64,000 nt of DNA from Chloroflexota bacterium (GCA_014360905.1 JACIWW010000001.1:146692-210691), one strand, 5' to 3'. Shown: positions 24,754 through 36,186, counted from the first letter of the stretch. Numbers and translations: made by a program. The notes: generated from the sequence alone by a model not told the origin.

Positions 24754-25836
24754 CTAGCCATGGCCAAAGTGCTCTTGATTCCAGCGATAGCCTTCGTCCA
24801 GCATGGCCAGATAATTGCGCACCGGGATGTAACTGGCCACGCTGTTGCCGCTGCCTAGGCAATACCCGCCGCGCAGCCCGCAGAAGTCGAGTATTTGACG
24901 CGTCCTGATCCGTACCTCTTCCTCTGTGCCACGACCAAGGACATCCATATCTACGCCGCCTAGCATAGAAATGCGCTCCCCCCAGCGGCGGCTGGCTTCT
25001 TCCACAGGCATGATCTTGTCCTGAAAAGAGTGCTTGCCGTCTATGCCCACGTACTCAATCAAATCATCCATGATTGCCGTGATATTGCCGCAGGAATGCA
25101 AGAGGAAGGGCAATCCCTTGGCATGGGTGATATCCACCAACTTCTTCTGGATGGGAAACACATACTGGCGCAAGTGGCGCGGTGAGATCATGGTGGAGTT
25201 GGTAAAACCCATGTCATCGCCAAAGAAGTAAGCCCCCACACCCGGGATATCCACTGCAGTAGCGCACGCTGCCGTGGTTAGTTCCTCGATCTTGGCGAAC
25301 ATGGCCTCAATCAGGTCTGGCTGTTCCATCAATGCGAAGGCAAAGGGTTGGTAACCCATCATCCACATCACCCACTCCAGCACGCCACCACCGCTTTGCG
25401 CAATTACCTGCATCCCTTCGGGGAGATGCTGCGCCGTGTACTCGATTGCCCAGTAGTCAATATCTTGCACCGAGGGCCACGGATAGGACTCGAACTCAGC
25501 CCAGGAAGTGATCACACCCTGGGTCTCGTTCTGCCAATAGCGCATGGCGCCATCAACTGCCGTATCCTCCGCCGTTACGATGGCCCGGTTCAGGGGGATG
25601 ACGAGGATGGCACAAACGTAATCGTACCCTAATTGGCGGTAGAACTGGATGGTGAGGTCACAGGCACGGGCGCGCGATTCACGGTCGAATCCCGTGGGAA
25701 ACTTTTCCCCTACCACTGCCTCCATGATGGGGACATCGGCAAAAAGTTCGATGAAGGGAACACGGCCAGGAGGTCCCTGCCGCAATAAAGTGCGTCGGAG
25801 ATGTCCAAAATCGGGGATATGTTTGAAAGTGACCAT
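24754..25836 (-). CDS. Uroporphyrinogen decarboxylase (URO-D/MtaA-like) family protein, function unknown
   Basis: 360 aa with URO-D-fold hallmarks (...GGGVLEWVMWMMGYQPFAFALMEQPDLIEAMF... FFGDDMG ... LHSCGN...). RBS AAAGGAGCAAATGAC. Confidence 0.65.
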   Translation of the reverse strand: MVTFKHIPDFGHLRRTLLRQGPPGRVPFIELFADVPIMEAVVGEKFPTGFDRESRARACDLTIQFYRQLGYDYVCAILVIPLNRAIVTAEDTAVDGAMRYWQNETQGVITSWAEFESYPWPSVQDIDYWAIEYTAQHLPEGMQVIAQSGGGVLEWVMWMMGYQPFAFALMEQPDLIEAMFAKIEELTTAACATAVDIPGVGAYFFGDDMGFTNSTMISPRHLRQYVFPIQKKLVDITHAKGLPFLLHSCGNITAIMDDLIEYVGIDGKHSFQDKIMPVEEASRRWGERISMLGGVDMDVLGRGTEEEVRIRTRQILDFCGLRGGYCLGSGNSVASYIPVRNYLAMLDEGYRWNQEHFGHG

Positions 25837-25934
25837 GTCATTTGCTCCTTTGCTCAGTAGTCATTGCCTTTTCTACACCCGAGACCATTATGCGCCCCTT
25901 GCGGTGTGCAGTCAAACAATGCACAGCAAGGGAT

Positions 25935-25975
25935 TTGACAATTCGCCCTATTTATACTATAATTTAAGCGCTTAA
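25935..25975 (+). promoter_or_regulatory. Consensus sigma70 promoter (TTGACA-N17-TATAAT) with abutting palindromic LacI-type operator TTAAGCGCTTAA
   Basis: TTGACA at about 25935-25940, TATAAT at about 25958-25963, and a perfect 12-bp palindrome at about 25964-25975, immediately upstream of the lacI-family gene at 25992. Confidence 0.5.
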
Positions 25976-25991
25976 GCAAATCGGAGGGTCA

Positions 25992-33973: not shown

Positions 33974-33992
33974 AGGAACACAAGGAGCACAT

Positions 33993-35060
33993 ATGTTCAA
34001 AGACATTCTCTACTACAAACCCGCTCTCTATGAAGTGATCGAACGCTATAAACGGCTCTATGCGGCACAGGGGCCAGGGCATATCTGCATCTACGCCACC
34101 CCACCATTCGAGCCACCCGAAAAGGCTCCTCCACTGACCGAAGTAAGCCTAGACGAGGGGCTGGAGGATTACCTTGACCTTTGCCTACGCAACTATGAGG
34201 CCATGCTGGAAGTGACCAGAGCCATACCAGATGACCTCATCCCCGGCTTTGGGCTGTTCTTCGGCATCGGCGATTACAGCGCTTTTGTTGCCGGAGAAGT
34301 GATTTTCACGCCGGACACCTCCTGGGCTGCACCCGTGCTCCACGACTGGGCAGATCTGGATGAACTTGCCTTGCGCGAGGACAATTATTGGGTACGTTTG
34401 CTGGAGCGCGCCGTTCGTTATGCAGTGGAGCGCATGCGCTCTGCACCCATACCCCTTGTGCGAGGCTACTACTCGCCGTTGGACCTCGCTCATGCCCTGC
34501 GCGGCGAACGCCTCTTCACCGATTTTTTCGATGCTCCAGAGCAGGTGCATCGGCTGATGGCATTCTGCACCAAGGCTACCATCTGGATTGCCAAGAGACT
34601 GCAGGCATTGATCGGTTACTACTGGGAAGGCAGCATTGCTGGTGCCTGGCTGCCAGCGGGCACCATCTGCATGTCGGAGGATATCGCCTGCATGGTCTCT
34701 CCGCACATCTACGCCCAGTTCGCTCGCCCTTACACGCAGCAGGTAATTGATGCCTTTGGGCATGGCCAGATTCATACGCATTCCCTGGGGATGCATGTCC
34801 TTCCAGAGATAACCCAACTGCGCAACCTGGTCGGCGTGCAGGTGTCCGATGACCCCAATACCCCGCGCCCCTTTGACCATTTGGACACCCTGTTGCCCAA
34901 GACTCACAACGTGCCTCTTTCCATCGGATGCACCGGAGAGGACGTGCGACAACGCATCGAGGGTCTGGCAAGGAGCACGAACATCATCCTGGCCAGCAAC
35001 GTGTCCAGCGTGGAAGAAGGGCAGGAAATAGTGGCCCTGGTGCGGCAATTCTCCGCTTGA
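33993..35060 (+). CDS. URO-D/MtaA-like family protein (paralog 2)
   Basis: 355 aa. YYSPLDLAHALRGERLFTDFFDAPEQVHRLMAFCTKATIW is a URO-D-like segment. ATG preceded by AAGGAGCAC. Confidence 0.5.
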   Translation: MFKDILYYKPALYEVIERYKRLYAAQGPGHICIYATPPFEPPEKAPPLTEVSLDEGLEDYLDLCLRNYEAMLEVTRAIPDDLIPGFGLFFGIGDYSAFVAGEVIFTPDTSWAAPVLHDWADLDELALREDNYWVRLLERAVRYAVERMRSAPIPLVRGYYSPLDLAHALRGERLFTDFFDAPEQVHRLMAFCTKATIWIAKRLQALIGYYWEGSIAGAWLPAGTICMSEDIACMVSPHIYAQFARPYTQQVIDAFGHGQIHTHSLGMHVLPEITQLRNLVGVQVSDDPNTPRPFDHLDTLLPKTHNVPLSIGCTGEDVRQRIEGLARSTNIILASNVSSVEEGQEIVALVRQFSA

Positions 35061-35112
35061 TCTGAGGGGAGCAACAGGTGCAGCCGCGCTTACGCCCTTT
35101 GTAGGAGGAGCA

Positions 35113-36186
35113 TTGGAATACAAAGAAGATTGGGAACAGGCCAAAGAGCACTTGATTGCCTTTTGGAATGGTTCCGCCATTCAGCGGGCAACTTTGCAGA
35201 TCTACGCACCGCGCGATGTGGCACTCCCGGGACCAAAACCACCGACCACTCCACAAGATCCGACGCAATTGTGGACAGACCCGGATTACCTCATCGCGGC
35301 AGCAGACCATCACTTTCGCACCCAGTACTTTGGAGCGGAAGCTGTCCCATCGCACTGGATTAACCTGGGCCCAGGAATCATGGCTACCTACTTGGGCTCG
35401 CGTCCTACTTTTGCCCCTGACACAGTTTGGTATGGCCCTATCGCATACGAATACGAACGCCCCCTCCTTCAGGAGGAGGACAATCGCTGGTGGCAACTGA
35501 CTAAGGACCTGACTCGCCTTTCTTGCGCATTCTTCGCCGGGAAAGCCCTAACCGGTATCACCGACCTGGGAGGCTGCACGGATGTACTGGCAAGTCTGCG
35601 CACTACAGAGGCTTTGCTTCTGGACATGGTTGGTCGTCCAGAGCAAGTGCAGCAGGCAGTCATCGAACTGGCTCACATCTGGGTTCATTGCTACAATGAG
35701 CTGTATGCAATGGTGGAAGAAAATGACCAGGGCAGCATCCAATGGCTCGGAGTTTGGGCGCCAGGCAAGATGTACAATGTGCAATCCGATCTATCCTGCA
35801 TGATCTCGCCAGCCATGTTCAACTCCTTTGTAGTCCCCGAATTGGAGATCGTGCTCTCCAATCTAGACTTTGCGCTTTACCACCTGGACGGCCCAGGTGC
35901 GATCAAGCATCTCGACCGCCTGCTGGAGATACCCAACCTAAAAGGCATCCAGTGGACGCCTGGTGAGGGACAACCGCCCGTCTCAGAGTGGATACCTATG
36001 TACCGACGCATCCAGAAGGCAGGCAAACTCCTGCATTTGCACGGCGAGGCACGCTATGCAGAGCGCGTGCTGAGGGCACTCGAGCCAGAAGGACTGATGT
36101 ACGTTACTTGGTGTGAGACCCAGACCGAAGCCGAGGATCTCATGCGCAAGGCAGAATCCTGGGCGGCAGGTCCACGCCGGGATTGA
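35113..36186 (+). CDS. URO-D/MtaA-like family protein (paralog 3)
   Basis: 357 aa. GGCTDVLASLRTTEALLLDMVGRPEQVQQAVIELAHIW is equivalent to the paralog-2 segment. TTG start after AGGAGGAG. Confidence 0.5.
   Translation: MEYKEDWEQAKEHLIAFWNGSAIQRATLQIYAPRDVALPGPKPPTTPQDPTQLWTDPDYLIAAADHHFRTQYFGAEAVPSHWINLGPGIMATYLGSRPTFAPDTVWYGPIAYEYERPLLQEEDNRWWQLTKDLTRLSCAFFAGKALTGITDLGGCTDVLASLRTTEALLLDMVGRPEQVQQAVIELAHIWVHCYNELYAMVEENDQGSIQWLGVWAPGKMYNVQSDLSCMISPAMFNSFVVPELEIVLSNLDFALYHLDGPGAIKHLDRLLEIPNLKGIQWTPGEGQPPVSEWIPMYRRIQKAGKLLHLHGEARYAERVLRALEPEGLMYVTWCETQTEAEDLMRKAESWAAGPRRD

Follow-up and report, generated by a model that had tools for sequence, protein, structure and literature searches.

Corrinoid-dependent O-demethylases and haloalkane dehalogenases use proteins of the uroporphyrinogen decarboxylase (URO-D) superfamily as their first methyltransferases (MTI), and these, some with zinc and others without, work together with a corrinoid protein, a second methyltransferase (MTII) and an activase (PMC13222342). 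In characterised systems of this kind (OdmB/VdmB, MtvABC, MtoABCD, CdmBCA), the MTI, a small corrinoid protein, MTII and an ATP-dependent activase occur together (PMC13222342). A similar methyltransferase set is seen in mlp gene clusters of type 1, for which methyl-sulfur or methyl-selenide compounds were put forward as substrates (Kountz and Balskus, PMC10418091). As for the demethylation of sugars, porphyran degraders employ a cytochrome P450 that demethylates 6-O-methyl-D-galactose in an O2-dependent, haem-based reaction which releases formaldehyde (PMC6292453). Here we analyse a 64-kb stretch of DNA from a Chloroflexota bacterium (the window) whose locus at 24754-36186 combines three genes for URO-D-fold proteins, termed P1, P2 and P3, with genes for an ABC sugar importer and two GH13 glycoside hydrolases. 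Our reading, held with a confidence just short of even, is that we have here one version of a conserved cluster for the breakdown of an alpha-glucan oligosaccharide with chemical modifications, which would be demethylated via a corrinoid.

Loci with P2 homologues from other genomes bring together the same parts as the corrinoid O-demethylases, from which they differ in being embedded in an operon for a sugar importer, GH13 enzyme and esterase under LacI, TrmB or PocR-AraC regulators. Further differences are that P2 and P3 make up clades of their own, marked by H-x-H or H-x-D motifs and by polar invariant residues, and that the window itself contains no corrinoid protein, MTII or activase. The lack of a corrinoid protein and activase also sets the window apart from the type 1 mlp clusters, and the paper describing these mentions neither carbohydrate genes nor any sugar, carbohydrate or ABC-transporter terms (PMC10418091). 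With 16 bits and no match, respectively, on the MtaA models, P2 and P3 are moreover unlikely to fall within the similarity criterion of that study. With the P450 demethylase our proposed system would share the task (freeing a sugar of its O-methyl group to let catabolism go on) and the location of its genes in a glycan utilisation locus; the P450 has an unrelated fold, and the proposed P2 system would work anaerobically with cobalamin and keep the methyl group available. What is known here is the corrinoid methyltransferase cluster as such, and what is new appears to be its placement in a glycan-utilisation operon, the two divergent URO-D clades and the substrate class that they imply.

The locus carries nine genes (P1, lacI, the gene for a sugar-binding lipoprotein (SBP), two permease genes, GH13a, GH13b, P2 and P3), which from lacI to P3 all lie on the plus strand, P1 alone being on the minus strand. 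An earlier sequence-only reading of this DNA had placed one URO-D-family gene divergent from lacI and two more behind the two GH13 genes, and both placements are borne out: P1 (24754-25836, minus; 360 residues) points away from lacI (25992-26999, plus), and P2 (33993-35060, plus; 355 residues) and P3 (35113-36186, plus; 357 residues) lie 3' of GH13b. P2 starts with the ATG at 33993 behind AAGGAG, 20 bp past the GH13b stop codon, and all of its homologues begin with MFK; a 434-residue open reading frame from 33756 is an over-extended version of it. P3 starts with the TTG at 35113 behind GGAGGAG, and a 100% identical 357-residue protein is on record.

P1 is URO-D/MtaA-like, with 77.5 bits on the Pfam URO-D model (PF01208), and the profile of its family finds MtaA (4AY7) as the top match among PDB sequences, its HsCG being aligned with HICG. 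The H247-S-C249 motif of P1 is invariant in its H-x-C residues and stands opposite the H-I-C of MtaA, whereas the G-C-G of MtaA aligns with G-x-G-N, the Cys being absent. The zinc site of MtaA is reportedly formed by the H-x-C motif together with a distal Cys. On the NCBIfam MtaA/CmuA models (TIGR01463, NF004889), P1 obtains 54-55 bits and P2 16-29 bits against cut-offs of 235-244, while P3 gives no match; P2 and P3 differ from MtaA and MtbA also in lacking the Cys of H-x-C, in place of which they carry H261-x-H263 and H257-x-D259. Another difference from MtaA and MtbA concerns the acceptor, as these bacteria are, to our knowledge, not known to make coenzyme M. P2 reaches 31 bits on Pfam URO-D over a partial stretch, and no Pfam or NCBIfam model matched P3. 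P2 and P3 share 25% identity (E 1e-16); neither shows BLAST similarity to P1, and profile comparison with the P1 group gives P3 a probability of 88% (E 3e-6) and P2 a weak 35%. By these comparisons P2 and P3 are distant paralogs to which P1 is related at the superfamily level only, so that of the three paralogs first described, the common fold and the P2/P3 pair stand and P1 is joined to them through profile comparison only.

Because sequence searches of the PDB with P2 and P3, whether single or by profile, returned nothing usable, fold prediction was needed. AlphaFold2 models of both proteins were searched with Foldseek. The P2 model (24 homologues; mean predicted confidence, pLDDT, 91) matched UROD with an E-value of 2e-10 and MtaA (4AY7) with template-modelling (TM) scores of 0.61-0.63; the P3 model (26 homologues; pLDDT 95) matched UROD with 2e-6 and a TM score of 0.6, with MetE lower down. 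For both models MtaA and UROD ranked first and MetE next, followed by a clear gap before generic TIM barrels. These predicted structures place P2 and P3 firmly in the URO-D/MtaA/MetE superfamily and thereby uphold a family assignment for which hidden Markov models give weak support in the case of P2 and none in that of P3. MetE is a single chain of two barrels that uses methyl-folate and homocysteine; a set of Zn ligands like that of MetE was identified in neither P2 nor P3.

HemE has the same URO-D (beta/alpha)8 fold as P1 (by Pfam) and as P2 and P3 (by predicted structure), and public annotations speak of "uroporphyrinogen decarboxylase"; both would suit three ordinary HemE copies in haem or sirohaem biosynthesis. 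We give this next to no credence and reject HemE identity. None of the three proteins matches the hemE equivalog model TIGR01464 at E <= 0.01, whereas MtaA-like (group B) proteins from related loci do score on it. HemE carries an N-terminal substrate-binding signature, PxWxMRQAGR (PROSITE), and the Arg-rich RQAGR-type part of it is absent from the translations of P1, P2 and P3. No tetrapyrrole genes were found near the three genes, and their synteny with sugar genes is kept. The sequence-only reading had argued against a role in tetrapyrrole metabolism, and on this point it is supported. That these are URO-D-fold proteins other than HemE, and tied to a sugar locus, we hold with high confidence.

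The tie is conserved far beyond the window. A scan for P2 homologues, with one genome per species, returned 77 loci: 16 from Chloroflexota, 8 from Thermotogota and the remainder from Bacillota sensu lato, including Izemoplasmatales, Acholeplasmataceae and Clostridia. Most homologues belong to Anaerolineaceae (50-95% identity); distant ones (33-40%) are from Izemoplasmatales, Acholeplasmataceae, Clostridia and Thermotogota. The loci were annotated by phmmer with reference proteins of known Pfam content, and features were counted in the 30 loci with at least 9 kb of flank on either side of P2 (full-flank loci). An ABC importer is present in 29 of these and GH13 in 27; thus the link with sugar ABC transporters and GH13 genes is kept across three phyla, co-occurrence with GH13 loci in Chloroflexota having been put forward as a check.

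URO-D-superfamily proteins of these loci fall into groups A, B and C, beside which stands P3 as a remote paralog of P2. Group A consists of P1 and reference proteins U368, U348 and U338 of related loci (mutual E 1e-52 to 1e-91; P1 finds U368 of Longilinea at a phmmer E of 4e-91), with an invariant H-S-C and an invariant His 22 residues past the first His. Group B, represented by U316 and U336, shows an H-N-C motif and is a true MtaA-like protein; its scores are 183-196 bits on URO-D, 135-153 bits on MtaA/CmuA and about 70 bits on the hemE model. Group C is P2, the gene by which the conserved cluster is defined, with invariant H261-x-H263, E229-D230, D287-P288-N289, DTSW, R157 and W133. Group A is found in 26/30 full-flank loci and group B in 14/30; the window has one group A protein (P1), one P2, one P3 and no group B. 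Three URO-D-superfamily genes are present in 16/30 loci and two in 10/30. Rather than unusual, as it had seemed from the window alone, a set of three is therefore the norm for this type of cluster.

Gene order varies by lineage. In Bacilli and Thermotogota it runs DUF2284, RACo (the reductive activase), a PocR/AraC regulator, corrinoid protein, P2, SBP(-permease), permease, GH13, a SusF-like protein, group A, group B and esterase. Anaerolineaceae, among them Longilinea arvoryzae, have LacI, SBP, two permeases, group A, P2, GH13, a CBM48-esterase and the corrinoid protein, to which some loci add group B, DUF1638 and RACo. A Clostridia variant shows LacI, P2, SBP, permease, GH13, an X25-like protein, Amidohydro_2 and group A. 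It might be argued that genes so arranged are merely co-located or co-regulated with sugar uptake and have no action on sugar, and the H-x-C motif of groups A and B would be in keeping with this. They are, however, interleaved on the same strand with transporter and GH13 genes, at minimal gaps, in three phyla and under LacI/TrmB regulators, and the mlp clusters have no such sugar context (PMC10418091). To our minds, mere co-location is therefore very unlikely.

What points to methyl transfer is the company that P2 keeps. A corrinoid protein is encoded in 17/30 full-flank loci, often along with RACo (11/30) and the MtaA-like group B, which argues for the transfer of methyl groups and not for decarboxylation. 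In 22 species the gene next to P2 on its 5' side, at a gap of no more than 14 bp, is that for the corrinoid protein, and in 15 species the gene directly after group A is that for group B or the corrinoid protein; group B occurs with a corrinoid protein in 12 of its 14 loci. The cluster corrinoid proteins score 188-204 bits on the model for methyltransferase-cognate corrinoid proteins. We consider it probable on balance, albeit well short of certain, that P2 is corrinoid-dependent. Of the role in modifying or demodifying a sugar that was first suggested, the tie to sugar genes holds at the level of the cluster, and the removal of O-methyl groups is plausible; a carboxylated glycan or a decarboxylase finds no support.

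The P3 family extends the picture. Its invariant residues are H257-L-D259, H266-L-D268 and Q280-W281, and a P3 profile run against 1.84 billion representatives retrieved 4195 clusters with a threshold of E <= 1e-3 and, with one of E <= 1e-30, 1313, so the family comprises at least 4195 clusters, clustered at 50% identity. Among the matches listed, 118/120 homologues had no Pfam match, the other two matching PF01208. In 80 metagenome loci the most frequent neighbour of P3 is a group-A URO-D gene (14/80), and others include GH2, GH4, GH38, apiosidase-like, BNR and GFO/IDH/MocA proteins as well as sugar ABC transporters; one single context has a KDG kinase, an aldolase and a sugar ABC transporter. 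Neighbours are thus recurrently glycoside hydrolases and not genes of aromatic catabolism. One member of the representative library (P0370, 558 residues) joins a P3-like domain through a linker of about 40 residues to B12-binding_2 and B12-binding domains with a DxHxxG motif, matches the Longilinea corrinoid protein with an E-value of 7e-68 and is analogous to the MTI-corrinoid fusion of CmuA. A second long relative (P0436, 1025 residues) has a C-terminal region with faint GH47/GH76-like matches. P3 adjoins a corrinoid protein in 6/80 loci, the order in a few being corrinoid protein, RACo, P3, or ABC, group A, P3, corrinoid protein. The corrinoid link of P3 is much weaker than that of P2.

P1 homologues of 55-63% identity likewise occur elsewhere, for example behind a PTS EIIC-GAT transporter. 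In one locus (L087, 5249-9077), a P1 relative stands directly behind genes for PTS EIIA, EIIB and EIIC-GAT, and in another (L008, 6161-11074) URO-D genes and a P3 relative lie amid sulfatases, a GH51 arabinofuranosidase and a fucose isomerase/kinase/aldolase set. The association of URO-D-fold proteins with sugar loci therefore reaches beyond alpha-glucans.

Gene content, folds, conserved synteny and the adjacency and fusion to a corrinoid protein are what the data show; which way the methyl group moves, from what substrate, with which metal site and how the proteins share the work is what we infer. In the scheme that we favour, an exported GH13 enzyme would cleave the polymer, a MalEFG-like ABC importer would bring the fragments in, a cytoplasmic GH13 enzyme would trim them, and the URO-D-fold proteins would strip off methyl groups that otherwise block sugar catabolism. 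P2 would act as the substrate:corrinoid methyltransferase (MTI) that binds the O-methylated sugar and passes its methyl group to the Co(I) of the corrinoid. Active-site geometry was judged from the positions of invariant residues relative to predicted strands: those of the P2 family (D, E, R, H, W, N, Q) have polar or aromatic side chains and sit at the C-terminal ends of the predicted barrel strands, which is what a sugar site would lead one to expect. Since this is so, and since the neighbours of the P3 family are glycoside hydrolases, P2 may well bind sugar. The invariant His-x-His with its Asp/Glu cluster may hold a Lewis-acid metal that would activate the ether oxygen, as zinc does for methanol in MtaB. 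P1, with its MtaA-like H-x-C, may be a second MTI or may unload methyl-corrinoid onto a thiol or tetrahydrofolate; in P2 clusters at large, group A or group B could likewise serve for unloading or for a second methyl position. P3 could be an accessory P2 paralog, perhaps for another methyl position. The corrinoid protein, MtaA-like MTII and ATP-dependent activase of this genome would be encoded outside the 64-kb window.

Several observations weigh against this scheme. No corrinoid protein, RACo or MtaA-like MTII was found in the 64-kb window, its closest relatives likewise have none of these within 10 kb, and 13/30 full-flank loci lack a corrinoid protein nearby. Of the P3 loci whose flanks measure 5 kb or more, none (0/21) has a corrinoid protein or RACo, and the P3-corrinoid fusion is a single cluster. 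We know of no methylated alpha-glucan that is abundant in the habitats concerned, and in the literature we found no precedent for cobalamin-dependent cleavage of an aliphatic sugar methyl ether. CdmB, the sole relative of aromatic O-demethylase MTIs in the PDB sequence set compared, matched our profiles poorly (E 0.34 for P1 and 0.4 for P3) or, in the case of P2, not at all. Finally, the CE1 feruloyl-like esterase and the recurrent Amidohydro_2 proteins fit a methoxylated aromatic substituent as well. As for B12 in the window, its only B12-binding domain belongs to a radical-SAM protein (43074-44642; 522 residues) and not to a corrinoid protein of the methyltransferase type.

The loci without a corrinoid protein bring up the option that their URO-D-fold proteins are cobalamin-free, for instance a MetE-like pair of P1 with P2 or P3 that passes the methyl group directly to a thiol, or that they catalyse some other TIM-barrel reaction on a sugar such as decarboxylation, isomerisation or hydrolysis. 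Consistent with such an option, P2 and group A (26/30) make up the cluster's invariant core, with the corrinoid protein lagging behind (17/30), nine loci have group A and no corrinoid protein, P3 relatives are found beside group A (14/80) and rarely beside a corrinoid protein, and the next-best structural match is MetE, a double barrel of the same clan. We nevertheless regard it as unlikely, given that the corrinoid gene abuts P2 in as many as 22 species, that a domain of the P3 type occurs in fusion with a B12 module and that genomes can encode corrinoid proteins elsewhere. Moreover, attack of a thiolate on a sugar methyl ether is chemically demanding, and the neighbouring genes suggest no carboxylated substrate. 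In a variant still more unusual than cobalamin-dependent sugar demethylation, corrinoid-less loci may use a two-barrel pair of P2 and P1 as a cobalamin-independent, MetE-like demethylase.

Turning back to corrinoid-dependent sugar demethylation, the nature of the substrate is hinted at by further neighbours of P2. A TrmB sugar regulator recurs in 22 loci, SASA-type esterases in 5 and glycogen phosphorylase in 3, and the cluster esterase (15/30 full-flank loci) has its nearest kin in CE1/CBM48 ferulic acid esterases and enterochelin esterase; these fit alpha-glucan use and de-acylation. The simplest reading has the oligosaccharide methylated and probably acylated as well. Mycobacterial methylglucose lipopolysaccharides contain alpha-1,4-linked 6-O-methylglucose and short-chain acyl esters (PMC4555173, PMC9883506), and a polysaccharide of the mycobacterial type (acylated, with 6-O- and 3-O-methylglucose) matches the enzyme mix, albeit as a candidate only. 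That the substrate is a sugar methyl ether at all we would rate somewhat below an even chance.

Alternatively, the methyl donor might be a methoxylated aromatic group, for example feruloyl, sinapoyl or vanilloyl, which an alpha-glucoside bears in ester linkage or as its aglycone, in which case the esterase would free the group and a classical O-demethylase (URO-D MTI, corrinoid protein, MTII and activase) would demethylate it. The kinship of the esterase, the presence of Amidohydro_2 in 14 P2 loci and the action of characterised UroD-superfamily MTIs on methoxylated aromatics (PMC13222342) all lend themselves to this view. Comparison of the Amidohydro_2 neighbour with PDB sequences was uninformative. 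The Amidohydro_2 family includes aromatic-acid decarboxylases. P1, P2 and P3 are not close to CdmB, however, and the P1 profile is nearer to MtaA; the P2 invariants are polar and do not suggest a hydrophobic or aromatic pocket; and relatives of P1 and P3 lie beside glycoside hydrolases, PTS or ABC sugar transporters and sugar-acid genes rather than those of aromatic catabolism. Feruloylated alpha-glucans are not known as a natural substrate class, which counts against it too. An aromatic methyl donor thus strikes us as improbable.

The importer and GH13 genes of the window fit the first half of our scheme. The SBP (27149-28477, plus; 442 residues; SBP_bac_1 and SBP_bac_8) is the sugar-binding lipoprotein of a CUT1 ABC importer, has a lipobox-like signal (...VGGC...) and a Pro/Thr linker at its N-terminus and scores 230 bits on the GanS model, which is under cut-off. 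The permeases, MalF-like (28577-29515, plus) and MalG-like (29512-30375, plus), both match BPD_transp_1. Judged against the equivalog cut-offs, MalE (199 vs 291 bits), MalF (260 vs 392) and MalG (176 vs 261) all fall short; the importer is by sequence a CUT1 sugar importer akin to MalEFG, and the label of a maltodextrin-type transporter/GH13 locus, right as to SBP, MalF/MalG-like permeases and two GH13 genes, is therefore approximate. GH13a (30384-32078, plus; 564 residues; Pfam Alpha-amylase 252 bits) begins with a lipobox-like signal (ILVAC) followed by a Pro/Thr linker, keeps its catalytic D253, E282 and D357 (motifs GFRCD, GEVW, FLNNHD) and is probably an exported, lipid-anchored alpha-glucanase. 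GH13b (32162-33973, plus; about 600 residues; Pfam Alpha-amylase 200 bits) has no signal, carries GYRLD and FLDNHD motifs, scores 239 bits on AglB and 202 bits on MalZ (both under cut-off) and, to judge from these, is a cytoplasmic enzyme resembling cyclomaltodextrinase or maltodextrin glucosidase; the catalytic Asp/Glu/Asp is retained in both GH13 proteins. Lipoprotein-like signals and long Pro/Thr-rich linkers are common to GH13a and SBP, and suggest that both are surface-tethered in a monoderm-like Chloroflexota envelope.

P1 may share its regulation with these genes. LacI (335 residues; Pfam LacI, Peripla_BP_3 and Peripla_BP_1) is separated from P1 by a 155-bp spacer, in which a divergent promoter region (25887-25976) holds two promoters and a palindrome. 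The promoter facing lacI is a perfect sigma-70-like one (TTGACA-17-TATAAT, 25935-25963), and that facing P1 (TTGACT-17-CATAAT, 25915-25887) matches in 10/12 positions. The palindrome TTTAAGCGCTTAAG (25963-25976) lies at the lacI -10 box and shares its final base, while a second operator-like palindrome related to it, TTTCAGCGCTTCAA (27078-27091), lies 58 bp 5' of the SBP start codon. Palindromes of the latter type are statistically weak (5 matches in the window vs 3 expected), the position being suggestive. Both are probably LacI operators, TTTAAGCGCTTAAG because of its position and symmetry, and if they are, a single regulon would take in P1, the transporter, both GH13 genes and P2/P3.

At the other end of the locus, the terminator that had been placed behind the third URO-D gene did not materialise. 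The scan reported no plus-strand intrinsic terminator 3' of P3, and the sole candidate, a hairpin at 36236-36253 (plus) that the scan did not report, comes from fold analysis: it has a stable 7-bp GC-rich stem (regional fold z = -3.0) and no U-tract after it. Co-transcription of the URO-D genes with the GH13 genes also lacks support. In three related genomes, whose P2 is 91-95% identical in protein and about 80% in DNA, P3 is the one gene that stands in inverted orientation, converging with P2, so that its co-transcription is not a conserved feature. The inverted unit includes the ribosome-binding site (35103-36181 of the window vs L009 9987-11074, L010 6385-7458 and L011 11070-12148), with flanking genes unchanged in order and orientation; in L011 the P2 and P3 open reading frames overlap by 4 bp at their ends. 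A search for inverted repeats flanking P3 as the cause of inversion gave short imperfect matches only, none convincing.

Around the locus, three very large and possibly secreted proteins are encoded at 16824-24674 and 36685-43020: a Sortilin/BNR-repeat protein (1272 residues), a CBM96-containing protein (1218 residues) and a bacterial alpha-2-macroglobulin (2111 residues), the last of which, together with a 4HBT thioesterase gene 5' of it, is syntenic in the relative L009. Further upstream lie a 1272-residue protein of unusual sensor-regulator architecture (12837-16655; winged-helix Trans_reg_C, BTAD, AAA_16 ATPase and a C-terminal family-5 solute-binding domain) and a cluster of the hydroxyproline-catabolism type (184-11771) with SDR, AcnX (aconitase X), a DAO-type FAD oxidase, two proline-racemase-family genes, two DHDPS-family genes, an ILVD/EDD dehydratase and an aldehyde:ferredoxin oxidoreductase. 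Another sugar locus under LacI control (46966-60921, minus) encodes three xylose-isomerase-like TIM barrels, a GFO/IDH/MocA oxidoreductase, a Zn-dependent alcohol dehydrogenase, two PfkB kinases, a creatininase-family protein and a CUT1 ABC importer. The latter has its ATPase (51614-52684), whereas the URO-D locus is without an importer ATPase.

Methyl ethers, found on sugars of algal, plant, bacterial and mycobacterial glycans, block glycosidases and later catabolism. The sole enzymatic removal that we found described is the O2-dependent P450 reaction on 6-O-methylgalactose (PMC6292453), which makes the handling of methylated sugars by strict anaerobes a question, and we found no paper tying URO-D/corrinoid methyltransferases to GH13 or sugar loci or to anaerobic sugar O-demethylation. 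We tentatively propose, with less than even confidence, that P2 with its P1-type partners, and perhaps the P3 family, represents a class of cobalamin-dependent carbohydrate O-demethylases in the glycan loci of anaerobes from at least three phyla, for which acylated methylglucose polysaccharides of the actinobacterial type may be one substrate. The presence of the cluster in cultured Longilinea arvoryzae KOME-1 makes direct testing possible. If true, this would be the first oxygen-independent enzymatic removal of sugar methyl ethers and a new auxiliary activity for carbohydrate-active enzyme systems; part of anaerobic glycan turnover would depend on vitamin B12, cobalamin methyl-transfer chemistry would reach aliphatic ethers, and thousands of genes now annotated as 'uroporphyrinogen decarboxylase family' or 'hypothetical' would gain a function.

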